This document shows positions 6,918 through 63,433 of a DNA stretch of 64,000 nt, one piece after another. The notes under the pieces were generated by a model. It was not told where the DNA came from. It did not search any database and saw nothing but the letters and a program-made list of their open reading frames with translations. Within the stretch, counting starts at the first letter, position 1. Each line of letters begins with the position of its first letter. A program made the translations under genes and the position numbers. The DNA is from Salinivirgaceae bacterium (lineage in GTDB: Bacteria; Bacteroidota; Bacteroidia; Bacteroidales; SZUA-534), in contig JBAYKX010000023.1 of assembly GCA_041664345.1 (NCBI GenBank), forward strand, positions 10,558 through 74,557. The letters are read 5' to 3'.

Positions 6918-7091
6918 ACCTAAGTTGAGCGATTTGACCCCGAGTCCTCGGGGGAAAAAACGCTTTACTTAGGTATAACCCCGACCTAGAAATTGTTACA
7001 ACATACCAAACAAATGGACAGCATAAAGTAAATTACTTACAATTTCTTAGTCGATTGAGTGATTTGCCCTTCCAAATCGCTCAATTTGGGT
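6918..7091 (+). mobile_element. MITE-like element, family B, copy 1
   Basis: Aligns end to end with the reverse complement of 42975-43139. Imperfect 19-bp terminal inverted repeat acctaagttgagcgatttg / caaatcgctcaatttgggt. Has internal hairpins and no ORF. Overlaps the 3' end of rsmI. Confidence 0.7.
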
Positions 7092-17333: not shown

Positions 17334-17566
17334 GGGAACTTGCAGCGCCTGCTGCGAGAGATTGGAAAACTGGGATGATTGGAAAATGGGAAAGGGTTGC
17401 CAGGTTACAAGGCTGCAGGGTAGAAAGGTAGCAGGGTTACAAGGTAACAAGGGAACAAGGTGGCCGGGTTACAGGGTTACAAGGTGGGAAATTAGGAACG
17501 TTGGAACTTGCAGCGCCTGCTGCGAGACAAGCTGCTGCGAGAGATTGGAAAATTGGAGCAATGAAC
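17334..17566 (+). repeat. Family C intergenic element: two direct hairpin cores bracketing a degenerate octamer array
   Basis: Cores lie at 17335-17373 and 17503-17556 (ggaacttgcagcgcctgctgcgagagattggaaaaytgg). Between them are 8-nt units ttacaagg ctgcaggg tagaaagg tagcaggg ttacaagg taacaagg gaacaagg tggccggg ttacaggg ttacaagg. Confidence 0.7.
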
Positions 17567-17606: not shown

Positions 17607-17788
17607 CAGGGAAATCGCTTTTAAGAATTTCAATTTTAAACACGCTTTTTCGGCGCATGGTTTTTCACAATTTCAATTAAACTGTAGTGCTTGCGCCGAT
17701 TTTATACCGCAAATTCATATACCCCGAGTTGAAACTCGGGACTATTCATATTAAATCCCTCCGGGATTTCTTAAAAGCGAATTCCCTG
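17607..17788 (+). mobile_element. MITE-like element, family A, copy 1 (182 bp)
   Basis: Terminal inverted repeat cagggaaatcgcttttaagaa / ttcttaaaagcgaattccctg with 1 mismatch. Flanked by a perfect 10-bp direct repeat gaacctaccg (17597-17606 and 17789-17798). No ORF. A second copy is inverted at 50110-50293. Confidence 0.8.
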
Positions 17789-17823: not shown

Positions 17824-20800
17824 TTATTCAATACTGATTTTCTTATAGTATATTTTTTCGGCGGTTGCTATCACCACAAAATAATTGCCCGTAGTAAGCC
17901 TCGAAAGGTTTATTCCTTTGGTTAAATTAACTGATTCATTGCTAAATACAATTTTACCGGTTGCATCCAACACTTTAACCTGTTGTACTTTGGTAACCGG
18001 GTTTAATGCTTTAATATGCAAGAACCCTCTGACAGGATTCGGATAAATGTTAAATGCCTCAGAAGCCTCAACCAGTAATTTAATGCCCAAATCGTTTTTA
18101 ACGAGAATAGCAAAAAAACATGTTATAGTCAATCCGCCCAAATCGCTAGCCTTAATAAGCAATTCATGCAATTGCTTATCGGTAGTAATGGTTTTGTTCA
18201 CTACCAAATTATGGCCGGTAATGGTATAGTTTTTTGTGTCATCCAAGTTAGTTTGAGTATCGGAGGTAAATTCGAAGGTGTGTGAATCGTTCATATCTTC
18301 GTCCTCTACATTCAAAACACCAACCACCGTACCCAGCATATCGGAAACAAAAACCGTATCGTTGCTTAATAAAATGTCGGTTGGGGCTTCGTTAACATTG
18401 TTAATGATTACTTCAAAACTTCTTTCCATGCTGGAATTACCCTCGTCTATAGCTTTTATTCGATAATATAGTTTTGATTTAAATTCATAGTTAAATTCAG
18501 CACCAGATAATAAATTATAACCATCAATTGAAAATGCATTGTTATCATCGGAGCCAATTCCATCAACTAATTCAAATGAATGATTGCCCTGAGAATCTTC
18601 ATCAAATACTTGTAAATTAGCAACTACTGTATTTAATGGCATGTTTTCGTAAATTGTATATCCAATATAACCTATTTCAGTAATCGGGTCATTCATATCG
18701 GTTACCGTTAATACAAACCCCTTTTCAAATGAATCTCCTTCCGAATCAATGGTTTTGACCCTAATTTTTAGTTCATTCTTAGCCTCAAAGTTTTGAGTAT
18801 AAGCTTTTAACTGATTACCTTCAATAGTAAAATAAGTGTTATCATCGGAACCTTCCCCGACTACAAGTTCATAAGTAAAGCTATCGTTGCTGTTTTTATC
18901 AATAGTTGATAACGTGCTTATTGCCGATAAATCAGGCAAGTTTTCAGCAAAACTGGCAAACGACAATTGAATATCGGTAGGTGGATAATTGATGGGAAGA
19001 TACAAGCTCTGTATGTCGTTGGTATAGGTAGCTGTCATAAAACCATAGTATCCGGTACCAAAATACACCGAATCGCCCAAAGCAAATGAAATGGGATTAT
19101 TTCGGTTGTTCCCCAAATTTAGTAAGTCGCCCAAGTTTTCAACTTGATTGGTGCTTGGTTTGTAGCTTACAATATCTTTCTTGTTACCATAACAGATATA
19201 CCCTTTATTCCCAATTCCAATAGCTGTGGCATCATTCACTGAGAGATGTAATCCATCGGCAAAAATTTTCTGTTGCCAGCTATTGGTTGCCGGGTTGTAT
19301 TCCTGTATATCGCTCGATTGCGATGTCCCATTGGAATAGTTGACCCCTCCCGAAACATAACCCTTGCCCTCAACCACAAAGGCACAGGCCGATGTTCTTT
19401 TTGCTCCCGTAAAGGTGGCAATTTCAGACCACGAGTCATGTACGGCATCGTATTTCCAAAAGTCCTTTGTTTCATCCATTGCATCGGCTCCGGTGCCTAC
19501 ATAAGCGGTATCGTTAATAACAAAGCTAACCGCATCGTAACGGGCGGTTCCTGCAAAATTGCCAAGGGTTGTCCATTGATTGGTGGCAGGGTTGTATTCA
19601 TAAAAATCGGGATAGTAAGTAAAGGGGTATTTACTGCCTCCCAAGCCAACGTAACCCTTTCCATTAACAGCAAATGCAACAGCTTCTGTTCTTGCTGCCC
19701 CAGGGAAAGGAGCTACCTTTGTCCATACATCGGTTCCGGCATTATATTTCCAAAAGTCGCTTAACACACTGTCGGCATTTTCGCCCAAACCCACATAAAC
19801 GGTATTATCAATGGTAAAACTTACCGCACTGGAACGGGGAATTCCCCGGAAGGGATTGATTCCCGTTTCATCCACATCAATCAGGTTGATGGTAATGGTG
19901 GCGGTATCGGAAAATTCGCCATCGAAAGCCACTACTTGAAGGTTAAAAGATGGGTTAACTTCGTAATCTAAAAAGAGGTTGTTATTTACCGATATTCCAC
20001 CGGTTGAAGCATTTATAGCAAAAGTATTGTACAAGTTACCGGAAATTATAGCATGCGCTAATACATCGCCATCTAAATCGGAAGCAACAACAGAACCAAT
20101 AATAGTTCCATTCTGCTGGTTTTCTAAAACAGAAAATTCAGTATCAAGAAACTCTATGGATTCGTTTATATTTAAAATATTAATGGTAATTGCTGCGGTG
20201 TCGCTTAATTCTCCATCAGACACTAGCGTTAGAAGTTCAAAAGTTTTGTTTTCTTCAAAGTTTATAGCCGTGGAATCTATTACATAAACAACCCCTGTAG
20301 AGTCAATCACCCCAAAAACCTTATCGAGGCTTGCATGAATAATAGAATAGGTCAATTTTGAATTGAAATCTTCATCGGCAGCAACCAACGTGTCTAAAAT
20401 TGTACTATTATTTGGGTTTTCAGGAATGTTTAAAACTAAATCGGATAGGTGGGGTTTTTCATTTAGATCAATTAAATCTATATCAACTTTAACCGAATCA
20501 ATTAATTGACCATCAGAAACTAAAATTTTTAGATTAAATGATTTGTTTAGTTCATAGCTTAAATATTGTGTGTTTTTAATTTGAATGGCTCCTGTTGTGG
20601 AATTAAGGTCAAACACATTACTTATATTGCCCGAAACAATGGTGTAATTTAATGCATCATTATCTTCATCAAAAGCTTCTAGTTGATAAATAATTGAATC
20701 ATTGGGTAAATTTTCCTCTATTTCTAACTGTTTATAAGGGTTACATATAAGTTCATTAACATTATCAATTTGAATATTAACGAAAGAAGTATCAACAAAT

Positions 20801-22194
20801 TCCCCATCAGAAACTTGTACATATAAACTGAAATTTTGATTCTCTTCATAGTTGATTAAAGAAGAATCCATAACATAAATAACACCGGTCGAGTCAACTA
20901 CTCCAAATGCACCAGATGGATTTGCCTGAACAATAGAAAAAACATGGGTATCATTATAATCTTCGTCAGAAATTAAAATGGTATCAACAATTGAATTGTT
21001 TAAAGGATTTTCATCTATCAACTCTTGCAAATTATTGGTCAAAACTCTTTCATTAACATCATTAATTTTAATGTTGTAGCCTATGAGTTTGCTTGATGAT
21101 CCATCATATATTTTAATTATTGCGTACAATGAATCGTTTCGTTCAAAGTTAAAGTAACTTGAATCAATAATCGAAATCTGCCCTGTTTCACTATCTAATT
21201 TAATTGCATTATCATCATTCCCATCAAAGACCGAAAACTCTAGAATTCCATTACCATAATAATAAGCATCAACAGTATCAAGTATCTGATTATTATTTTG
21301 ATTTTCATTTATTTGGATTTCTTGATTATAAGTATAAAGTTCAGGCCCTTGATATTCATAAGCACCTATATCAATTCTTCCATATTGAATTCTTTCATTA
21401 CCTTCAAAATCATAATTAGTTATTAAAGAATCATTTGTAAAATTTGGGTCGCCCATATTTATGCAGGGTGATGTATTTTGTAACGCATAAGGATTTGCAC
21501 CGGAACCCACAAATAAAGGATCAACATCTATATTGCCATCAGCTTGTAATTGAGCCCCCACAATATCACAATTGGTTATTTTAGGAGTTGAGTTGTATGG
21601 ATCTAAATTTGCCTGCCCATTGCCTGAAACAATGCAGTTTGATATTTCAGATAAGGAGTAATTTATTTGAATTCCAGAAACTTGATTATCCGATATGGTA
21701 TTGTTTGTTATTTTAGGTGAAGAAAAATCACAACTAATACCAATCCAATAATTTTTTACAATTAGGTTCCCTTCGATTCGTGGAGATGCTTGATAACAAT
21801 AAATTGCTTCATTATTGTTACGTGTAATTAAATTATTAGCTACAATAAGTTTATTCATATTATAAACACACAGTGCACTACCATAGCCATCAAGCCAATA
21901 ACTGCCAAAGGCATTCCCAAACTGCATAATACAGAATTCAATTTTTGAAGTATCGTTTGAGCTGGGTGTTTCTAAAAACCGAATACCACCCCAACCACCA
22001 CTGATATAAGTCAATACCGAGTCTTTGGCTGTAAAAATTATCCTATTTTGTGCCGTTCCTTGGGCTAAAATCCTTCCTTGCACATTGAGTTTGTAATGCC
22101 CCTGAAACTCTACATAAACCCCCGGGTTTATGGTTAAGGTGCGGGCATTGTTAATGGTTAAGTTGTTATAACTTTTATGGTGTCGGCACTCCAT
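17824..22194 (-). CDS. C-terminal fragment of giant T9SS-secreted adhesin (beta-helix module 4, cadherin-like repeats, Kelch-like beta-propeller, more cadherin-like repeats, T9SS C-terminal domain)
   Basis: Its first residues (NNLTINNARTLTINPGVYVEFQGHYKLNVQGRIL) continue the repeat that the upstream ORF breaks off in. Cadherin-type domain ends are present (INDVNE, IDNVNE, LIDLNEKP, VTDMNDP). Kelch-like repeats (FWKYN..WT, FYEYNPATNQW). C-terminal IYPNPVRGFLHI... sorting domain. Confidence 0.8.
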   Translation of the reverse strand: MECRHHKSYNNLTINNARTLTINPGVYVEFQGHYKLNVQGRILAQGTAQNRIIFTAKDSVLTYISGGWGGIRFLETPSSNDTSKIEFCIMQFGNAFGSYWLDGYGSALCVYNMNKLIVANNLITRNNNEAIYCYQASPRIEGNLIVKNYWIGISCDFSSPKITNNTISDNQVSGIQINYSLSEISNCIVSGNGQANLDPYNSTPKITNCDIVGAQLQADGNIDVDPLFVGSGANPYALQNTSPCINMGDPNFTNDSLITNYDFEGNERIQYGRIDIGAYEYQGPELYTYNQEIQINENQNNNQILDTVDAYYYGNGILEFSVFDGNDDNAIKLDSETGQISIIDSSYFNFERNDSLYAIIKIYDGSSSKLIGYNIKINDVNERVLTNNLQELIDENPLNNSIVDTILISDEDYNDTHVFSIVQANPSGAFGVVDSTGVIYVMDSSLINYEENQNFSLYVQVSDGEFVDTSFVNIQIDNVNELICNPYKQLEIEENLPNDSIIYQLEAFDEDNDALNYTIVSGNISNVFDLNSTTGAIQIKNTQYLSYELNKSFNLKILVSDGQLIDSVKVDIDLIDLNEKPHLSDLVLNIPENPNNSTILDTLVAADEDFNSKLTYSIIHASLDKVFGVIDSTGVVYVIDSTAINFEENKTFELLTLVSDGELSDTAAITINILNINESIEFLDTEFSVLENQQNGTIIGSVVASDLDGDVLAHAIISGNLYNTFAINASTGGISVNNNLFLDYEVNPSFNLQVVAFDGEFSDTATITINLIDVDETGINPFRGIPRSSAVSFTIDNTVYVGLGENADSVLSDFWKYNAGTDVWTKVAPFPGAARTEAVAFAVNGKGYVGLGGSKYPFTYYPDFYEYNPATNQWTTLGNFAGTARYDAVSFVINDTAYVGTGADAMDETKDFWKYDAVHDSWSEIATFTGAKRTSACAFVVEGKGYVSGGVNYSNGTSQSSDIQEYNPATNSWQQKIFADGLHLSVNDATAIGIGNKGYICYGNKKDIVSYKPSTNQVENLGDLLNLGNNRNNPISFALGDSVYFGTGYYGFMTATYTNDIQSLYLPINYPPTDIQLSFASFAENLPDLSAISTLSTIDKNSNDSFTYELVVGEGSDDNTYFTIEGNQLKAYTQNFEAKNELKIRVKTIDSEGDSFEKGFVLTVTDMNDPITEIGYIGYTIYENMPLNTVVANLQVFDEDSQGNHSFELVDGIGSDDNNAFSIDGYNLLSGAEFNYEFKSKLYYRIKAIDEGNSSMERSFEVIINNVNEAPTDILLSNDTVFVSDMLGTVVGVLNVEDEDMNDSHTFEFTSDTQTNLDDTKNYTITGHNLVVNKTITTDKQLHELLIKASDLGGLTITCFFAILVKNDLGIKLLVEASEAFNIYPNPVRGFLHIKALNPVTKVQQVKVLDATGKIVFSNESVNLTKGINLSRLTTGNYFVVIATAEKIYYKKISIE

Positions 22195-25100
22195 ACTACA
22201 TCTTCATTGGGGAGTTCAAAATATTCATTTGAATTGAGTACATAAATTTCGGTAATGAGTGTATCGGATAAAACGCCATTGCTCACTTTTATCTTCAAAT
22301 GGTAGTTAGTTTCTGCCTGGGCCTCTGTTGGAACCCATTTTATTGTATCGTTTTCAATTGACAAACCACTCGGGGCCTCAATTATGGTGTAAGTTACTCC
22401 TGAAGGAAAACTTATCGGTTTTATTGCTTCTGCATAAACGGAATCAAAACGGATGTGCTTTTTTCTGATTGTACGGAAAACTAAAAACGAATCAGGGTCG
22501 CTTTGCAGTTCGTATGCACCCATATCAATTGTAGGGTTTGTTCCCCCTTCGTAAATCCTTGGGTTACCGGCTATGTCCATGTTTATTTCCAAACTATCCG
22601 TATCCCAATCGGGTCGCCCGGAATTTAAACAAGGTGATGTTTTTTGTAACGCATAAGGATTTGAACCGGATACCACAAATAAAGGATCCACATCTATATT
22701 GCCATCAGCTTGTAAATTAGCTCCCACAATATCGCAATTGGTTATTATAGGAGTTGAGTTGTATTGTTCTAAATTTGCCTGCCAATTTCCTGAAACAATG
22801 CAGTTTGTAAGTTGCGGAGACGAGCTTTGTAAAGATATTCCACAATAACCTTGATTATCCGATATGGTATTGTTTGTTATTTTAGGTGAAGAATTATAGC
22901 AATTAATACCATTCCCATAATTTTTTACCATCAAGTTCCCTTCAATTAATGGTGATGCATTATTACAATAGATTGCAGAATTCCAACTAGATGATCTGTT
23001 TTTTGCAATTAAATTATTGGTAATTTTAATTTTGTCAAAACCATAAATACATAATGCGCCTCCATGACCATCAAGCCCATCACTGCCAAAGGCATTCCCA
23101 AACTGTATGATACAGAATTCAATTTTTGATGTATCGTTTGAGCTGGGTGTTTCTAAAAACCGAATACCACCCCAACCTCCACTAGTATCAGTTAATACCG
23201 AGTCTTTGTCTGTAAATGTTATCCTGTTTTGTACCGTTCCCCGTGCTAAAATTCTTCCTTGTACATTTAATTTATAATGCCCCTGGAATTCCACATAAAC
23301 GCCTGGGTTTATGGTTAAGGTACGGGCATTGTTAATGGTTAAGTTATTAATAACTTTTATGGTGTCGGCACTCCATACAACATCTTCATTGGGGAGTACA
23401 AAATATTCATTTGAATTGAGTACATAAATTTCGGTATTGAGTGTATCGGATAAAACGCCATTGCTCACTTTTATCTTCAAATTATAGTTTGTTTCTGCCT
23501 GGGCCAATGTTGGAACCCATTTTATGGTATCGTTTTCAATTGCCAAACCACTTGGGGCTTCAATTATGATGTAAGTTACCCCTGAAGGAAAACTTATCGG
23601 TTTTATTGCTTCTGCATAAACGGAACCAAAACGGATGTGCTTTTTCCCGATTGTACGGAAAACTAAAAACGGATCAGGGTCGCTTTGCAGTTCGTAGGCA
23701 CCCATATCAATGGTAGGGTTTGAACCAAAAGTATAAATCCTTGGGTTACCGGCTATGTCCATGTTTATTCCCAAACTATCCGTATCCCAATCGGGGCGTC
23801 CGGTATTTAAACAGGGTGATGTATTTTGTAACGCATAAGGATTTGCACCGGAACCCACAAATAAAGGATTTATATCCATATTGCCATCAGCTTGTAAATG
23901 AGCCCCCACAATATCGCAATTGGTTATTTTAGGAGTTGAATAGTATTGAGCTAAATTTCCATCCCCATTGCCTGAAACAATGCAGTTAGTAAGTTGCGGA
24001 GAGGAACTAACTAAATATATCCCATAATCTTGATTATCCGATATGGTGTTGTTTGTTATTTTAGGTGAAGAATTATCACAATAAATACTATAATAATAAT
24101 TTTTTACAATTAGGTTCCCTTCGATTCGTGGAGATGCATGATAACAAAAAATTGTGTAGTATCTGTTACGTATAAATAAACTATTAGCTACAATAAGTTT
24201 ATTCATATTAGAAACACACAATGAACTTCCAAATTGATCGAGCCAATCGTCACTGCCAAATGCATTCCCAAACTGCATAATACAGAATTCAATTTTTGAA
24301 GTATCGTTGGCACTTGGTGTAGAATAAAACCTAATTCCACCCCAACCACCACTGGTACCAGTTAATATTGAGTCTTTGGCTGTAAAAGTAATTCTGTTTT
24401 GTGCCGTTCCCCGGGCTAAAATCCTTCCTTGTACATTGAGCTTGTAATGCCCCTGAAACTCCACATAAACCCCCGGGTTTATGGTTAAAGTGCGGGCATT
24501 ATTAATGGTTAAGTTATTAATAACTTTTATAGTGTCGGCACTCCATACAACATCTTCATCGGGGAGTTCAAAATATTCATTTGAATTGAGTACATAAATT
24601 TCGGTATGGAGCGTGTCGAATAAAACGCCATTGCTCACTTTTATCTTCAAATTGTAGTTTGTTTCTGCCTGGGCCAATGTTGGAACCCATTTTATGGTAT
24701 CATTTTCAATTACCAAACCACTTGGAGCCTCAATTATGGTGTAAGTTATCCCTGAAGGAAAGCTTATCGGTTTTATTGCTTCTGCATAAACGGAACCAAA
24801 ACGGATGTGCTTTTTTCCGATTGTACGGAAAACTAAAAACGGATCGGGATTGCTTTGCCGTTCGTATGCGCCCATATCAATTGTAGGGTTTGTTCCCCCT
24901 GTGTAAATCCTTGGGTTACCGGCTATGTCCATGTTTATTCCCAAGCTATCAATATCCCAATCGGGTCGCCCGGTATTTAAACAGGGTGATGTATTTTGTA
25001 ACGCATAAAGATTTGAACCGGAACCCACAAATAAAGGATCTGCATCTATATTGCCATCAGCTTGTAAATTAGCTCCCACAATATCGCAATGGGTTATTTT

Positions 25101-25690
25101 AGGAGTTGAATTGTCTTGGTATAAATTTCCATACCCATTGCCTGAAACAATGCAGTCTGTTATTTCAGGAAAGGAACTATCAAAAATATTAATACCATAA
25201 CCTCCATTATCCGATATGGTATTGTTTATTATTTTAGGTGAAGAATTATTGCAACTAACACCAGTCCAATAATTTTTTACAATTAAGTTTCCTTCAAATA
25301 GAGGTGATGCATTATAACAATAGATCGCTTCATTATTGTTATGTGTAATTAAATTATTAGCTACAATAAGTTTATTCATATTATAAACAAACAATGCACT
25401 ACCAACTCCATCAAGCCAATCGCTGCCATAGCCATTTCCATATTGTATAATACAGAATTCAATTTTTGAAGTGTCGTTTGTATTTGGTGTATCAATAAAC
25501 CGTATGCCATGCCAACCACCACTGGTATCCGTTAAAACAGTATCCTTTGCCGTAAAAGTTATCCTATTTTGAGCCGTTCCCCGGGCTAAAATCCTTCCTT
25601 GTACATTTAGTTTGTAATGCCCTTGAAATTCCACATAAACACCCGGGTTTATGGTTAAAGTAATGCCATTATCCACAGTAATTTCTCCGG
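21340..25690 (-). repeat. Tandem ~1.17-kb intragenic repeats (about 3.6 copies)
   Basis: The anchor string atggttaa recurs at 25651, 24481, 23311 and 22130, giving spacings of 1170, 1170 and 1181 nt. Long stretches are identical between copies by eye. Confidence 0.9.
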
Positions 25691-25850
25691 TTACTTTTAC
25701 GGTGTCGGCACTCCAGGTTTCGTTGGTGGTAATGTTTCCGCTTTTTTCAATTACAGTTTGGGCTTGTAGGGTTGTGCCCAATAAAAAAATAAATGGGAGT
25801 AGTAGATTCTTCATTTGTGCTATTTTGTTTAAAAAACCTTGGATGCTCAA
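22158..25850 (-). CDS. N-terminal fragment of the same giant adhesin (signal peptide + three tandem beta-helix/Ig-like modules)
   Basis: The likely real start is the ATG at 25814 (MKNLLLPFIFLLGTTLQAQ); the track start at 25850 is a TTG. Contains three ~390-aa near-identical modules. The ORF ends in ...VVWSADTIKVITT*, where intact modules read ...VVWSADTIKVINNLTINN. Confidence 0.8.
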   Translation of the reverse strand: MSIQGFLNKIAQMKNLLLPFIFLLGTTLQAQTVIEKSGNITTNETWSADTVKVTGEITVDNGITLTINPGVYVEFQGHYKLNVQGRILARGTAQNRITFTAKDTVLTDTSGGWHGIRFIDTPNTNDTSKIEFCIIQYGNGYGSDWLDGVGSALFVYNMNKLIVANNLITHNNNEAIYCYNASPLFEGNLIVKNYWTGVSCNNSSPKIINNTISDNGGYGINIFDSSFPEITDCIVSGNGYGNLYQDNSTPKITHCDIVGANLQADGNIDADPLFVGSGSNLYALQNTSPCLNTGRPDWDIDSLGINMDIAGNPRIYTGGTNPTIDMGAYERQSNPDPFLVFRTIGKKHIRFGSVYAEAIKPISFPSGITYTIIEAPSGLVIENDTIKWVPTLAQAETNYNLKIKVSNGVLFDTLHTEIYVLNSNEYFELPDEDVVWSADTIKVINNLTINNARTLTINPGVYVEFQGHYKLNVQGRILARGTAQNRITFTAKDSILTGTSGGWGGIRFYSTPSANDTSKIEFCIMQFGNAFGSDDWLDQFGSSLCVSNMNKLIVANSLFIRNRYYTIFCYHASPRIEGNLIVKNYYYSIYCDNSSPKITNNTISDNQDYGIYLVSSSPQLTNCIVSGNGDGNLAQYYSTPKITNCDIVGAHLQADGNMDINPLFVGSGANPYALQNTSPCLNTGRPDWDTDSLGINMDIAGNPRIYTFGSNPTIDMGAYELQSDPDPFLVFRTIGKKHIRFGSVYAEAIKPISFPSGVTYIIIEAPSGLAIENDTIKWVPTLAQAETNYNLKIKVSNGVLSDTLNTEIYVLNSNEYFVLPNEDVVWSADTIKVINNLTINNARTLTINPGVYVEFQGHYKLNVQGRILARGTVQNRITFTDKDSVLTDTSGGWGGIRFLETPSSNDTSKIEFCIIQFGNAFGSDGLDGHGGALCIYGFDKIKITNNLIAKNRSSSWNSAIYCNNASPLIEGNLMVKNYGNGINCYNSSPKITNNTISDNQGYCGISLQSSSPQLTNCIVSGNWQANLEQYNSTPIITNCDIVGANLQADGNIDVDPLFVVSGSNPYALQKTSPCLNSGRPDWDTDSLEINMDIAGNPRIYEGGTNPTIDMGAYELQSDPDSFLVFRTIRKKHIRFDSVYAEAIKPISFPSGVTYTIIEAPSGLSIENDTIKWVPTEAQAETNYHLKIKVSNGVLSDTLITEIYVLNSNEYFELPNEDVVWSADTIKVITT

Positions 25851-25957: not shown

Positions 25958-26268
25958 AAAGTTGGGGATTTGGAAAGTTGGGAAGTTGGGGAAAGGGTAG
26001 CAAGGTAACAAGGTTGCAGGGTTACAAGATGGAAAATTGGGGACGTTGGAACTTGCAGCACCCGCTGCGAGACATGCCGCAGAGAGAGATTGGAAAATTG
26101 GGAAAATGGGAAGTTTCCAAGCCCAAAGGACGTTGGAAAGTCGGTAGTTATTCCTTTTTAACTTTCCATAGCCACATTGACGTTTCCATGTCCTCCGGAC
26201 GATGGAAAGTCAGTGCTGATGTGGAAAAGTCGTTGAAATTTGAAATTCTGGAAAGATGGGAAATTGGA
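25958..26268 (+). repeat. Family C intergenic element (heptamer/octamer-type units + hairpin core + extra hairpins)
   Basis: Reads aagttgg gaagttgg..., then tagcaagg taacaagg ttgcaggg ttacaaga, then the core ggaacttgcagcacccgctgcgagacatgccgcagagagagattggaaaattgg at 26048-26101. Next come the hairpins tggaaagt...actttcca and tttccat...atggaaa. Confidence 0.65.
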
Positions 26269-26270
26269 AA

Positions 26271-26316
26271 GGTTGAAAAATGGAATTATTTCTTTCCATT
26301 TTTCAACCTTTTTTAT
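26271..26316. terminator. Strong hairpin, probable (bidirectional) terminator
   Basis: Perfect 13-bp stem ggttgaaaaatgg (26271-26283) / ccatttttcaacc (26296-26308), followed by ttttttatt. It lies directly 3' of the minus-strand gene ending at 26320. Confidence 0.65.
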
Positions 26317-26319
26317 TGG

Positions 26320-27123
26320 TTAGAACACCCAACCAATGCGTAGTCCAGCAGTACCAGCAATGGGTACTTCTTCACCTCCAGTTGCGAAGCCGTAGGCTAT
26401 TCCTTCACCATTGCCACCAGCTTTGCTATAGCCATAGCCAAATCCAACATATAAATCCACTAAAAATGAATCATCGATTACCCATTGTTTACCAAACTTT
26501 AGCATTAATGCAATGGCAAAATCATCCTCACGCTTGGTTGATGAATTGTAAGGGTAATAATAATCATAATCATAAGTATCAAAATACATGTAGCGTAATG
26601 CAAATTCAGGAGCAATGTAAGCCCCTTTAAGAATGTGTGAATAACGCATTTTATTCATATAAAGGTCGGGTGTTCTTATAAATTTATAGGCAAATTTGGT
26701 ATATACTCCCGCTGGATTATTTTCCTGAGGATCGAATCCCAAACCTACTATACCAAGCGCAGCTTCAAAGGATTTCCCGGGTTTTATATTTTGTTCGTAG
26801 GCAAATTCGGTGCTACCGTATAAAGGCGACAGAAAATTAATTTTAAGGGCTCGCCGGCTTTGATTGGTATAATAATCCGGATTATCAAAACTGTTGTTTT
26901 CCATTTTAACAACTTCACCAGTTGAAAATTCAACTCTATCAACCAAGGATTTTTCTATTCCAAAAATAATTTTAGGATTGCTTTGGTAAAAATACTTTAT
27001 TTTATCACTGCCCAATTCCGATACAGTGCAAGTAATAACATCGCCATTTGTTTTAATAATTTTATCTTGAGCAACCGATGTTAGGGTTATAAAGACCAAT
27101 AGAAAGCTAATAATATTTTTCAT
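26320..27123 (-). CDS. Hypothetical outer-membrane beta-barrel protein
   Basis: Signal peptide (MKNIISFLLVFITLTSVAQ). Alternating aromatic/glycine-rich strands and a terminal ...GLRIGWVF, as is typical of OM beta-barrels. No specific family recognised. Confidence 0.55.
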   Translation of the reverse strand: MKNIISFLLVFITLTSVAQDKIIKTNGDVITCTVSELGSDKIKYFYQSNPKIIFGIEKSLVDRVEFSTGEVVKMENNSFDNPDYYTNQSRRALKINFLSPLYGSTEFAYEQNIKPGKSFEAALGIVGLGFDPQENNPAGVYTKFAYKFIRTPDLYMNKMRYSHILKGAYIAPEFALRYMYFDTYDYDYYYPYNSSTKREDDFAIALMLKFGKQWVIDDSFLVDLYVGFGYGYSKAGGNGEGIAYGFATGGEEVPIAGTAGLRIGWVF

Positions 27124-28998: not shown

Positions 28999-29844
28999 AT
29001 GAACTCATTTTTAGAATTATTCCATTATACTTTTATCAATCACGCCTTATTGGCTGCTGTTTTATCGAGCATTATATGTGGAATTTTGGGAACTTATATT
29101 GTGAGCAAACGCATGGTATTTATCTCCGGTGGAATCACCCATGCTTCGTTTGGTGGTATTGGAATGGCATTTTACTTTGGTTTGTCTCCTTTTATAGGAG
29201 CCACAGCGTTTGCCTTGCTTTCGGCACTGGGCATTGAATGGATATCGAAAAAAGGCAACATTCGCAACGATTCCAGCATCGGTATTCTTTGGTCGTTGGG
29301 TATGGCTATCGGGATTATTTTTGTTTACATCACACCCGGTTTTACACCCAATTTAATGAGTTACCTGTTTGGAAGTATATTAACTGTTGGAGGCTCTGAA
29401 TTATGGATAATGACAGTGCTTGCCGGGGTAATCATCTTGTTTTTCACCCTATTCTACCGACCTATACTTTTCTTTGCATTCGACGAAAGCTTTGCCCGTT
29501 CGCAAAAGGCTCCGGTGGCTTTCCTGAATTACACCCTTATATTGCTCATTGCCTTTGGAATTGTGATAAATATAAAAGTGGCCGGAATCATTTTGGTAAT
29601 GAGCATGCTTACCCTGCCCCAAAACACAGCCAACCTGTTTTCAAACAATTTTAAACACATACTAATTTACTCCATATTGATTAGTTTAGCCGGAACATTG
29701 GCTGGACTGGCAGGCTCGTTCTGGTTAGGAATTCCATCGGGAGCAGCCATCATTTTTACGCTTTCGCTCATATTTTTTATTGCCAAAATTGCCAAGCTTA
29801 TTTTTGATAGAAGGAAAAGAGAGAAAACAGAGATTAGAAGTTAG
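28999..29844 (+). CDS. znuB: Zinc/metal ABC transporter permease (ABC-3 family)
   Basis: 281 aa, multi-TM, follows znuC by 3 nt. The last codons and the TAG stop lie inside the first units of the downstream heptamer array. Confidence 0.85.
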   Translation: MNSFLELFHYTFINHALLAAVLSSIICGILGTYIVSKRMVFISGGITHASFGGIGMAFYFGLSPFIGATAFALLSALGIEWISKKGNIRNDSSIGILWSLGMAIGIIFVYITPGFTPNLMSYLFGSILTVGGSELWIMTVLAGVIILFFTLFYRPILFFAFDESFARSQKAPVAFLNYTLILLIAFGIVINIKVAGIILVMSMLTLPQNTANLFSNNFKHILIYSILISLAGTLAGLAGSFWLGIPSGAAIIFTLSLIFFIAKIAKLIFDRRKREKTEIRS

Positions 29845-30246
29845 AAGACCGAAGTTGGAAGTCAGAAGAATGAAGACGGAAGTTAGAAGTCAGAAGTTGG
29901 AAGACCGAAGCTAGAGTTTAGAAACAAGAAAACAGAGACAAGAAAACAGAGACAAGAAACCAGTACCAAAAGTTGGAAAATGTGGCAGCCCTAAAAGGGC
30001 GAAAGAACATAGCCAAGGGCAACGCCCTTGGTAAAGTAGCACAAGTAATAAGCGGTGCATCCAACTAAGTTGCAATGGAATGGAAACATAACATGCACCG
30101 CAATATAGATAGAGCAATTGGAAGTTGGAAGTTAAAGATTAGAAATTAGGAATTAGATGTTAGAAACTAGAAGCCAGATAATAGAATCTAGAAACCAGTA
30201 ACTAGCATCCAGCAACCAATAACCAGTAACCAGTAACCAGCAACCT
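29824..30246 (+). repeat. Family C composite element: 20 degenerate heptamers, ~150-nt hairpin-rich unique core, 18 degenerate heptamers
   Basis: Parsed directly. The left arm 29824-29963 reads aaaacag agattag aagttag aagaccg aagttgg aagtcag.... The right arm 30115-30240 reads caattgg aagttgg aagttaa agattag ... taaccag taaccag taaccag. Confidence 0.8.
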
Positions 30247-42974: not shown

Positions 42975-43139
42975 ACCCAAATTGAGCGGTTTGGAAGGGC
43001 AAATCACTCAATCGACTAAGAAATTGTAAGTAATTCACTTTTTACTGTTAATCTTTTTGGTGAGCTACAACAATTTCTAGGTCGGGGTTAAACCTAAGTA
43101 AAGCGCTTTTTCGCTGCGCTTAAATCGCTCAACTTAGGA
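42975..43139 (-). mobile_element. MITE-like element, family B, copy 2 (inverted relative to copy 1)
   Basis: Its reverse complement aligns with 6918-7091, and the terminal ~65 nt are almost identical. It has the same terminal inverted repeat. The internal hairpin cassette differs. Confidence 0.7.
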
Positions 43140-50109: not shown

Positions 50110-50293
50110 CAAAGAAATCGCTCCTAAAAAATCCCGTTAGGGATTTAATATGAATAGCCCTGGGTTTCAACCCAGGGATCAAGTTTTCATGGTATAAAAT
50201 CGGCGCAAGCACTACCGTTTAATTGAAATTGTAAAGAAACCATGCGCTGAAAACGGGAATTAAAAATTGAAATTTTCCCAAGCGATTTCTCTG
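50110..50293 (-). mobile_element. MITE-like element, family A, copy 2 (184 bp, inverted)
   Basis: Aligns along its whole length with the reverse complement of 17607-17788. Termini caaagaaatcgct / agcgatttctctg. The hairpin stems differ from copy 1 by paired (compensatory) substitutions. Confidence 0.75.
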
Positions 50294-61119: not shown

Positions 61120-62381
61120 AATCGGGCATGCAAATCGGAACGTTCCAAATAACTGGTCTTTCCGAATAAAGGGTGATATTCGTTGTAAAAATAAAATTCC
61201 AATCCATCTTTTGAATCACGGCCATAGTTCCAAAATTCCCCATCATCGGTTTTTCGAACCTCGCCCGGAGCACCAAAAATAATATAAATCATTCCCCGGT
61301 CAGTTAGCCATCCTTCTTTAAAATCGGTAAAATAATAGTTGGCTAATTGAACCCTATGATAATAAATGCGAATCAATTCCCGCGCTTTATCCACATCATT
61401 AGCAGCAGTTAGCCAAAAAGAATCAACGGCCAACTTTGGAGAGCCAAGTTGCCAATAGGCCTGCATTTCTTTATCAGAACATAAATAGCCTAAAGGCCGC
61501 AATAATTCTTCCGGTGTTTTAAGGTATGGATAAAACTCATTGGCACAAAGGTAAGTTTTACCATGAATTCCCATAGTATCTGAGAAAAAATAGACTCCTT
61601 TTTTATTAAAAGAAAACAAACAAGTATCGGGGTGAGGAACGATGTATGATGTATCGATATCCATGGGTACAAGGTAAGTTTCTTTCTGAATATCAGGAGC
61701 GACGGGCAATGAGGTATCTGCCTGATAATAGGACAACCTTATTCCTGATGGATTAAAATGGTCACTGCGCACTCTAAAAGTATCCATGGCCGAAAAATGA
61801 TTGTAGAAAATTGGATTGGCATGCTGCGATAAAAAAAGGAAACTATTTTGGTTCCCTTCGGGATTAAAATCAACATCCAAAACCTGTGAAACGCTCTGTC
61901 CGGAATTCAAATCGGTTAAAAAAACCTCAATTATGTATTTTCCTTTTTCAGTAAATTGCAACGGTACATATCCCATGAACTGCGGGCGGGGTTTTCCCTT
62001 TAAAGTAAATAAAGCGGTTAAACTATCAACTATTTCAATACTTTGATAACTTTTAGTTGTTCTGAAAAAAAACCGGATATGAGCCTTTGGAACAGAATCG
62101 CCTTCAGCTACTAAAAAGGCAAACTCATTGGGGAAAAACCTGAAAAACAGGCGGTTATCGGTAGCCGATGTCATTAAAATACCATATTCAGGATGAAACG
62201 GAGTAAGTCCCGGATTGTATTGATGGGCATAATTCCTGTTGCTAATGGTGTCATATACCGTGACACATGAAATTGCAACCAACAATAAAATCAGGAATAC
62301 AACGAAATTATTTATATAATTTTTATTCAAAACAGTTAAATTAAATGGGACATTACAAATCAGGCATCGCACAAGGAACAA
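61062..62381 (-). CDS. GWxTD domain-containing protein
   Basis: C-terminal GWLTDRGMIYIIFGAP motif. The start is uncertain. A TTG at 62330 would give the lipoprotein-like N-terminus MNKNYINNFVVFLILLLVAISC. Confidence 0.7.
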   Translation of the reverse strand: MFLVRCLICNVPFNLTVLNKNYINNFVVFLILLLVAISCVTVYDTISNRNYAHQYNPGLTPFHPEYGILMTSATDNRLFFRFFPNEFAFLVAEGDSVPKAHIRFFFRTTKSYQSIEIVDSLTALFTLKGKPRPQFMGYVPLQFTEKGKYIIEVFLTDLNSGQSVSQVLDVDFNPEGNQNSFLFLSQHANPIFYNHFSAMDTFRVRSDHFNPSGIRLSYYQADTSLPVAPDIQKETYLVPMDIDTSYIVPHPDTCLFSFNKKGVYFFSDTMGIHGKTYLCANEFYPYLKTPEELLRPLGYLCSDKEMQAYWQLGSPKLAVDSFWLTAANDVDKARELIRIYYHRVQLANYYFTDFKEGWLTDRGMIYIIFGAPGEVRKTDDGEFWNYGRDSKDGLEFYFYNEYHPLFGKTSYLERSDLHARLWFNAITTWREGRVFTLNQ

Positions 62382-62469
62382 TATTAAAATGAATTGTTGA
62401 AATTAAAAAATTGTAAGGCGAATTAATAATTAAATAGCAATGAATAATTGGCAGTGAATTACAAAACTT

Positions 62470-62635
62470 CAGTTCTTCTTCTGTCTCCTGGTTGCTGGTT
62501 GCTCGTTACTGGTTGCAGGGTTTCAAGGTTTCAGGGTTGAAGGGTTAAATGGTTACAAGGTTAAATTGTTACTATCCAGCTTCTAATCTCTAATCTCTAA
62601 CTTCTAACTTCCAACTTCCGACTTCTAGCTTCCAT
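62470..62635 (-). repeat. Family C composite element (heptamers - octamers - heptamers), reverse orientation
   Basis: The minus strand reads aagctag aagtcgg aagttgg aagttag aagttag agattag agattag aagctgg. Next come the octamers taacaatt taaccttg taaccatt taaccctt caaccctg aaaccttg aaaccctg, then caaccag taacgag caaccag caaccag. Confidence 0.75.
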
Positions 62636-62638
62636 TTT

Positions 62639-63433
62639 CTAAGGCTTAACTTTCTTTAGGTACGTGCTTTCAAATTCAACCATTCTTTTCTCAACTTCAA
62701 CAAAAATTTCGTAAGTAGTTGCATCTAATAAATAATTGTTACTAAATGCAAGATAGTTATACAAAGAATCGAGCTTAGTGCCCGAAAAACCTGAAAATTT
62801 ACCCAGTTCTACCTTATTATATTTTTCATCAATCAATAGTTCTATTTCATCTTCCAGAAGCAGTTCACCCAGTTTCCGTAGGCTTTTCCCTTTATCGCTA
62901 AACATAAAGTACAATGCGGAAATGGGTCCATCAAAAGTCTTTTTGGGATTAAACTTTTCTTCTTCGCGCATAAATTGGTATTCACTTCGGGTAACTCCGG
63001 GAATTATCAGTTGTTGCCCCCAGGCATTTCTATCCGGTTTTAAATGAATAAAATCGTACCTGAATTGATTTTCGCGGGTTAAAGCAAAAATATCTACCAC
63101 ATTGAGTTGGTATGAGGTGGGCGAAAGTGAAATTTCCAAAAAACAAATGGTTGATTTCAACGAATCAGGCAGGGTCATTACTTTGTCTTCAAAACCGATG
63201 CAGCGAAAGAGCAACGTGTCTGTTTTTAATAATTTTATCCTGAAAATTCCTAAAGAATCGGATATGGTTCCGGTGCCGGTACGCAAATTTATAATATGCA
63301 CAAAAGGAGTTTTTTCCGATGAATCGGACGAATGAATAATACCGGCTAACCGGTATTGCATCGTTTCAACCTGAGCTATTGCTGTGGTTGCAGTAAGTAC
63401 AATAAAATAAATTATAAGTAACTGTTTATTCAT
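62639..63433 (-). CDS. CarboxypepD_reg-like domain protein (hypothetical, secreted)
   Basis: Signal peptide. The N-terminal segment LAGIIHSSDSSEKTPFVHIINLRTGTGTISDSLGIFRIK resembles the carboxypeptidase-regulatory-like fold. The rest is unassigned. Confidence 0.5.
   Translation of the reverse strand: MNKQLLIIYFIVLTATTAIAQVETMQYRLAGIIHSSDSSEKTPFVHIINLRTGTGTISDSLGIFRIKLLKTDTLLFRCIGFEDKVMTLPDSLKSTICFLEISLSPTSYQLNVVDIFALTRENQFRYDFIHLKPDRNAWGQQLIIPGVTRSEYQFMREEEKFNPKKTFDGPISALYFMFSDKGKSLRKLGELLLEDEIELLIDEKYNKVELGKFSGFSGTKLDSLYNYLAFSNNYLLDATTYEIFVEVEKRMVEFESTYLKKVKP

Follow-up and report, generated by a model that had tools for sequence, protein, structure and literature searches.

Here, we report that the intergenic tract at 62473-62641 of the window (the whole 64,000-nucleotide stretch of DNA that was analysed) is probably a continuous, degenerate tandem array with successive periods of 7, 8, and 7 nt, a member of the class of heptameric simple-sequence repeats that grew by local duplication and drift into an unstructured spacer between a stop codon and a promoter. 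Repeats of this class have been described in cyanobacteria (STRR), Xanthomonas, Beggiatoaceae, and some Bacteroidetes (PMC4692102, PMC4679880, PMC2670836). On the coding strand, a C-poor (A/G/T) array starts at the stop codon and is followed by a G-poor (A/C/T) array that faces the next gene. Layout rules for heptamer arrays have already been published for Xanthomonas and Nostoc, and the tract is of this ordinary kind; it has three peculiarities, namely, non-pairing arms from different unit families, a joint with an 8-nt period, and a depletion of self-complementarity.

Read along the minus strand, the array is unbroken and consists of nine 7-mers, eight 8-mers, four 7-mers, and two purine 7-mers (Table 1), passing from YRGAAGY 7-mers through NNNN-YAAC 8-mers and AACCAGY 7-mers to the purine heptamers. 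Unit decomposition placed 23 consecutive units in register and free of gaps. Tandem Repeats Finder returned period 7 at 62580-62632 and 62488-62516 and period 8 at 62511-62571 (scores, 39 to 62), well beyond chance for head-to-tail repeats with units in the 5- to 11-nt range; its three blocks agree with the unit decomposition and with direct reading of the sequence. All three approaches bear out the heptamer/8-mer/heptamer tract that had been described in a sequence-only reading, which placed it at 62470-62635, right after the stop codon. The tract does adjoin the stop, but its first unit already includes that codon, so that the array actually spans 62473-62641. The same reading had taken the 8-nt units as a central block; the eight 8-mers are present, but they are continuous with both arms. 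Unit changes are gradual along the array and the register is kept across the segment junctions; the 8-mer "centre" is therefore the midpart of one array with a drifting unit and a changing period, and there is no separate core.

Table 1. Positions, within the window, of the array segments, the flanking conserved block, and the sister element
Feature	Position	Strand	Description
Stop codon TAG of the 264-aa CarboxypepD_reg-like gene (62639-63433)	62639-62641	-	First triplet of the first heptamer
Left arm, nine 7-nt units	62579-62641	-	TAGAAAA TGGAAGC TAGAAGT CGGAAGT TGGAAGT TAGAAGT TAGAGAT TAGAGAT TAGAAGC
Middle, eight 8-nt units	62515-62578	-	TGGATAGT AACAATTT AACCTTGT AACCATTT AACCCTTC AACCCTGA AACCTTGA AACCCTGC
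Right arm, four 7-nt units	62487-62514	-	AACCAGT AACGAGC AACCAGC AACCAGG; type as at 30213-30245
Trailing pair of purine-rich heptamers	62473-62486	-	AGACAGA AGAAGAA; array end
Conserved 36-nt block	62379-62414	-	ACAATTTTTTAATTTCAACAATTCATTTTAATATTG; outside the array, directly upstream of the GWxTD gene start; kept in all relatives
Sister element after the ABC-3 (znuB-like) gene	29814-30245	+	AGAAGNN heptamers, AGAAACA/AGAGACA units, unique core, 18 heptamers

The left arm is nearly C-free (A26 G20 T14 C3), the middle segment contains C18 and G7, and the middle and right arm together (62487-62578) are G-poor, with 27 C versus 13 G in 92 nt. The array is intergenic, lying between the stop codon and the GWxTD gene, and holds no coding frame (stop codons occur in all six frames). 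Its longest G run is GG, short of the four or more runs of at least three G of quadruplex heptamer repeats, so that three-tier quadruplexes cannot form. The reverse complement of the middle 8-mers is a GGTTACAA-type 8-mer, which is present at 17.4 kb and 26.0 kb as well.

The array is base-for-base identical in two independent assemblies, one a 76.9-kb metagenome contig from ENA (ERZ27249449) and one a JGI contig from another sample (3300037810) that carries the same gene, and an assembly artefact was rejected for this reason. The two available assemblies represent the same strain and show no difference in copy number, so that they give no direct evidence of slippage. The upstream 264-aa product carries a weak CarboxypepD_reg-like domain, and its homologues form a small family, one of them named Salinivirgaceae, which makes the host Bacteroidales-like. 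A 92%-identical orthologue lies in the same gene order (HAD hydrolase, CarboxypepD_reg-like gene, GWxTD, SpoU methylase, Tricorn-like, M20, and TrkH), and its orthologous spacer of 203 nt contains no repeats. More distant relatives (48 to 55% identity) lack an array in the orthologous spacer, which measures 44, 50, and 127 nt in these genomes and 257 nt in the window, and two relatives, inspected over 15.7 and 20.8 kb, showed no comparable arrays.

The 36-nt block has the pattern TTTTTTAATTTC-N13-TAATATTG in the relatives (L003, L249, L251, and L252), persists in relatives with as little as about 50% protein identity, and stops only 5 to 10 nt before the start of the GWxTD gene, for which we infer it to be a promoter or leader. 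It may be a Bacteroidetes-type promoter that gives a leaderless or very-short-leader mRNA. Between the stop codon and this block lies the array, which, judged from the orthologous spacers, has been added there in the window lineage. In the alignment with L003, about 67 nt are replaced, which is not a clean insertion, and no target-site duplication is seen.

The array would have originated by local tandem duplication in the window lineage, through replication slippage or unequal exchange, after which its units would have drifted in sequence, and it would now fill the space between the CarboxypepD_reg-like stop codon and the GWxTD promoter/leader block. Presumably, transcripts of the upstream gene include it in their 3' region; if so, it would form a long single-stranded 3' untranslated region or intercistronic spacer with no hairpin. 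Any function would come from unstructuredness and periodicity, with no conserved fold involved. For example, the array could keep the stop codon region and the signals of the next gene free of structure, supply stop codons in all frames, or offer its C-rich half as an entry site for single-strand-binding factors or Rho. Most likely, the tract is a labile unstructured spacer made by slippage.

Folding calculations bear out the lack of structure. Of 200 dinucleotide shuffles, none folded as poorly as the sense RNA of the tract (z = +2.73), the antisense RNA was average among the shuffles (z = +0.13), and with DNA parameters both strands folded worse than the shuffles (z = +2.19 and +1.91). Duplex formation between the arms was no stronger than in shuffles (best duplex of the left arm with the rest, -18.9 kcal/mol; shuffles, -19.2 ± 3.8 kcal/mol), the tract contains no terminal inverted repeats, and an Rfam search of it gave no match at the gathering score or at an E value of ≤1. 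An Acido-Lenti-1-like core in the 62.5-kb element was rejected, as the Rfam search showed none. Within 62381-62638, no intrinsic terminator (G+C-rich hairpin plus T/U run) was detected; the single match of the consensus scan falls within the upstream gene. With essentially three letters per segment and arms that are not complementary, the tract is depleted in self-pairing. For annotation of the contig, the tract is no gene, no known RNA, and no terminator hairpin.

The sequence-only reading had argued for a structured element, and on this point it is not supported, given these values and the 92%-identical relative that is devoid of the tract. That arms and centre fold, as RNA or DNA, into a 3'-end element that ends or stabilizes the transcript is very improbable on the folding, duplex, terminator, and Rfam results, even though the layout adjoins a stop codon in two genes of the window, many arm pairs in other genomes are complementary around small hairpins, and the sister element at 29.8 kb folds better than its shuffles through its unique core (z = -3.1). 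Since the tract is absent in relatives, no covariation is possible.

The C-rich half invites another explanation, a Rho-dependent terminator or insulator, in which the unstructured stretch at 62487-62578 would load Rho and end read-through before the GWxTD promoter, and the C-free arm at the stop would delay loading until translation has finished. The excess of C over G in 92 unstructured nt, located after a gene and upstream of a promoter-like block, fits such a role, as do the failure to find an intrinsic terminator in the spacer and the G-rich-first rule described below, under which a C-free stretch precedes any exposure of C-rich RNA. The strongest minus-strand C>G windows of the contig (78 nt each) coincide with the other two array clusters, at 25965-26042 (C33/G4) and 17358-17435 (C31/G7), which also counts in its favor. 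A Rho utilization site needs some 80 nt of RNA that is unstructured and has far more C than G. The C/G ratio of 62487-62578 itself is modest and falls outside these extremes, relatives manage with spacers of 44 to 50 nt free of such a tract, and C-rich arrays elsewhere often reach start codons inside operons (L182 and L153), where termination would be harmful. We consider termination by Rho unlikely at this locus. As an outstanding Rho-site candidate, the C-rich half was rejected, being only moderate among the C>G windows of the contig.

To place the tract among other arrays, species-representative genomes (185,579 scanned) were searched with the exact pattern GAAGTTRGAAGTTRGAAGTT and metagenomes with the exact pattern AACCAGYAACCAGYAACCAG; at least 120 contigs matched in each scan, with a GC content of 0.35 to 0.73 in the metagenome scan. 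Open frames of at least 100 codons served as crude proxies for genes, and the loci, picked by exact patterns, are perhaps in part related. Arrays of (GAAGTTR)n and of (AACCAGY)n were each found in at least 120 contigs from many phyla, and among the genome matches listed were Flavobacterium, other Bacteroidota, Ignavibacteria, Acidobacteriota, Planctomycetota, Verrucomicrobiota, Gammaproteobacteria, Cyanobacteria, Chloroflexota, and others. At distances above 1 kb from the query arrays, the 1.47 Mb of fetched loci contained another 82 heptamer arrays, whose units vary widely. Because a genome rich in such arrays has units of many kinds, the occurrence of one unit in many phyla needs no special explanation, and horizontal spread or a universal reader was dropped as unneeded.

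A census of orientation relative to the upstream gene had been named beforehand as the check on the layout; copies do exist elsewhere, and their orientation is nonrandom, so that the layout withstands this check. Frames ending upstream of sense (GAAGTTR)n arrays had their stop within -29 to +14 nt of the first unit in 34/66 cases, versus 10/72 for antisense arrays (Fisher's test, P = 3e-6). Often, a unit such as TAGAAGT or TGAAGTT itself contains the stop codon. The asymmetry is seen with GG-type units, which contain no stop codon (14/29 sense versus 3/30 antisense), and with AG-type units (17/31 versus 7/37). AACCAGY arrays, too, abut stops more often in their G-rich orientation (21/58 versus 12/69; P = 0.025). 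The left arm in the window fits this rule, with G20 versus C3 on the gene strand from the stop onward.

The order of neighboring arrays is similarly constrained. C-rich partners of (GAAGTTR)n lay downstream in 26 cases and upstream in 1, and G-rich partners of (AACCAGY)n lay upstream in 34 and downstream in 6. Among adjacent pairs of opposite skew, the G-rich array preceded the C-rich one in 66/70 (binomial P = 1.7e-15), an order that reads the same on either strand; the G-rich array was also first in 12 of the 13 pairs in which neither array was of query type (binomial P = 0.003). The mean GC-skew profile around arrays, tried as a test of polarity, gave a weak signal, and the rule became visible only by scoring partner arrays. 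In other genomes, complementarity between the two arms is common, with small hairpins enclosed, and the bracketed cores share no sequence. The window array meets the G-rich-then-C-rich order by composition, with arms that are noncomplementary, unlike those of typical pairs.

The ordered layout, which the sequence-only reading had held to be nonrandom, recurs at 29.8 kb and 62.5 kb as a purine-rich, C-poor arm at the stop followed by an A/C-rich, G-poor arm. It is found again in hybrid arrays on other low-GC metagenome contigs (L136, L192, L182, L153, and L233): L136 combines AAGTCAG, TAGCCTG, TTGCCTT, TTATCTT, and GYAACCA in a single register, L192 runs from 13 copies of AAGTCCG to 5 of AACCAGT, and L182 leads from the rfbA stop through TTAGGT-type units and 5 copies of AACCAGT to the rfbC start. 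The shared order had also been used as an argument for gene-relative orientation. The recurrence of the order stands, but G-then-C is symmetric under reverse complementation and alone defines no gene-relative orientation. The strong rules of orientation and position suggest selection or a polar generating process, which pure neutral slippage leaves unexplained.

A further rival reading is a periodic platform for a single-strand nucleic-acid-binding protein, one per 7 to 8 nt, acting on termination, mRNA stability, or translation, with cold-shock-domain or S1-like proteins as candidates. The strict period of 7 to 8 nt and the orientation-specific placement at stop codons across phyla are what such a platform would show, and published proposals for TAACTGA repeats (PMC4679880) and for Nostoc heptamers (preprint) invoke proteins of this sort. 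We nevertheless give it little credence, as unit sequences vary greatly both inside one genome and from genome to genome, the relatives do without the tract, and an AAC/GTT anchor is not enriched. This anchor, considered as a common recognition motif in every 7 to 8 nt, was rejected after it was found in 19 of the 82 further arrays against 18.2 expected.

Tandem Repeats Finder detected four array clusters in the 64 kb, of which those at 17.4 kb and 26.0 kb differ in makeup from the elements at 29.8 kb and 62.5 kb. The sister element at 29.8 kb had been said to end in units of the right-arm type, and its last units are indeed AACCAGT/AACCAGC. Over 18 units, its second half holds to a single 7-nt register while drifting from AGTTGGA through AATTAGA and AACTAGA to AACCAGT. 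Its first AGAAGNN units (29814-29844, plus strand) supply the final codons and stop of the ABC-3 (znuB-like) gene (...KREKTEIRS-stop), so the array has reshaped the C terminus of the protein. The right arm of the 62.5-kb array is 92% complementary to 30221-30245. Near-identical full-length copies of the tract were not found within the 64 kb; only low-complexity similarity to the 29.8-kb element was (59 to 65 nt, 71 to 80%).

The unique core of the sister element contains an Rfam Acido-Lenti-1 match at 29987-30031 on the minus strand (41.6 bits; gathering score, 37; E = 5e-6). Acido-Lenti-1 has been described for Acidobacteria and Lentisphaerae, and the contig here is Bacteroidales-like, outside those phyla. 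Genes for PF05635 proteins (23S rRNA intervening-sequence protein/Avd-like four-helix bundle) were located within about 110 nt of arrays at 8/240 loci (L135, L198, L150, L011, L025, L105, L146, and L199), and at the first two, the gene is bracketed by inverted CTGGTTG/CAACCAG arms. A general link between arrays and PF05635 was rejected as an explanation of the tract, with 8/240 loci and none in the window.

The cores raise the question of whether the 62.5-kb copy is the "empty" footprint of a cassette element, whose heptamer arms elsewhere bracket variable cores. In support, the sister element has its core with the Acido-Lenti-1 match, inverted arms in other genomes bracket unrelated hairpins or PF05635 genes (L135 and L198, among the eight adjacent loci), and the tract is an insertion relative to the relatives. 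A footprint is, all the same, highly unlikely: the tract shows neither terminal inverted repeats nor a visible target duplication, the cores share no sequence and the window holds no PF05635 gene, and the units drift in register, unbroken, across the supposed junctions. The reading of the tract as one continuous array of drifting units is the one we retain.

A search of the literature with the exact repeat strings gave only irrelevant vertebrate matches. Rehm et al. [quoted passage not shown] Each Xanthomonas genome has 70 to 75 repeat pairs in "convergent orientation," G-rich first and then C-rich. Most of the repeats are transcribed, no function was found, and the Xanthomonas repeats are largely conserved between species (83%); the same paper cites an early report of such repeats for Calothrix. 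The GAAGTTR and AACCAGY arrays of our census obey the same stop-codon and pair-order rules, which suggests that what was published on position in Xanthomonas and Nostoc also applies to different units across many phyla. The window array differs from those heptamers in having at most GG and in having arms of different, noncomplementary families joined by 8-mers, and, in contrast to the largely conserved Xanthomonas repeats, it is missing in the 92%-identical relative.

MacGregor (PMC4679880, 2015) reported assemblages of TAACTGA and other heptamers in Beggiatoaceae, Cyanobacteria, and five Bacteroidetes, where several kinds of heptamer direct repeat pack intergenic regions and adjoin start or stop codons. 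For Gramella and Aequorivita, the gene neighborhood is shared with close relatives whose spacers are shorter and repeat free (PMC4679880), just as the relatives of the window locus keep the gene order with shorter spacers and no array. The window array departs from these heptamers in its units, in its segment with an 8-nt period, and in its Salinivirgaceae-related, Bacteroidales-like metagenome host, and no link to a start codon is seen at the window locus. The Nostoc preprint reports that heptamer repeats affect recF and recO expression. Cyanobacterial STRRs are 7-bp intergenic tandem units, often between genes of one operon, with proposed roles in transcript stability or translational coupling (PMC2670836). 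STRR tracts are usually described as hairpin forming, whereas the window tract is depleted in self-pairing. The original STRR description is reportedly that of Mazel et al. in 1990, and intergenic heptamer arrays are said to have been noted in cyanobacteria since then.

Phase-variable contingency loci, such as the 7-nt repeats upstream of Haemophilus hmw genes, resemble the window array as tandem heptamers of untranslated regions whose length slippage can change; their repeats are perfect and differ in copy number from isolate to isolate, whereas the window array is degenerate and identical in the two available samples. Enterobacterial REP/BIME elements, which are extragenic palindromes, lie in the 3' untranslated spacer behind a stop codon, differ in presence among related strains, and combine into composite arrangements; each REP is an imperfect palindrome about 35 nt long, with conserved sequence and a dedicated transposase. 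The window array is like REP/BIME in its position after a stop codon, its lineage-variable presence, and its composite makeup, and unlike REP in having no palindrome and no conserved unit and in its tandem organization.

The apparent extension of the Xanthomonas and Nostoc rules to other units in many phyla would be worth a proper genome-wide study. As a Bacteroidales-like example with arms of different families, the window locus separates the layout rule from hairpin formation, and such hybrid, noncomplementary arms argue that the rule acts on strand composition and not on pairing. More speculatively, and in our view rather doubtfully, a single compositional grammar may extend across phyla, with a C-free array on the coding strand from the stop, a G-poor array facing the next gene, and the G-rich array first, read by strand composition or single-strandedness and not by pairing. 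If this is true, some conserved factor, such as Rho, the terminating ribosome, or a single-strand-binding protein, would recognize unstructured periodic RNA or DNA, or, under the same grammar, a polar, translation-linked mechanism would generate the arrays; with either, the tracts would be a functional class of untranslated-region module.

Further repeats were noted in the window. A 25-nt hairpin module, GGAACTTGCAGCGCCTGCTGCGAGA, occurs three times (17335-17359, 17503-17527, and 26048-26072) beside GGTTACAA-type 8-mer arrays, and 17451-17563 and 25996-26108 have 113 nt in common at 82% identity, which makes these clusters a second, different composite repeat family in the contig. A terminator-like hairpin was recognized by eye at 26249-26320, between the stop of the upstream gene and the arrays. 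Two dispersed, inverted intergenic repeat pairs, 17607-17760 versus 50139-50293 (about 155 nt, 81 to 83%) and 6954-7091 versus 42975-43112 (138 nt, 89%), may be small mobile or REP-like elements. Finally, 21441-25719 comprises four tandem copies of a unit of about 1,170 to 1,182 nt (62 to 94% identity) inside large beta-helix protein genes on the minus strand (17824-22194 and 22158-25850).
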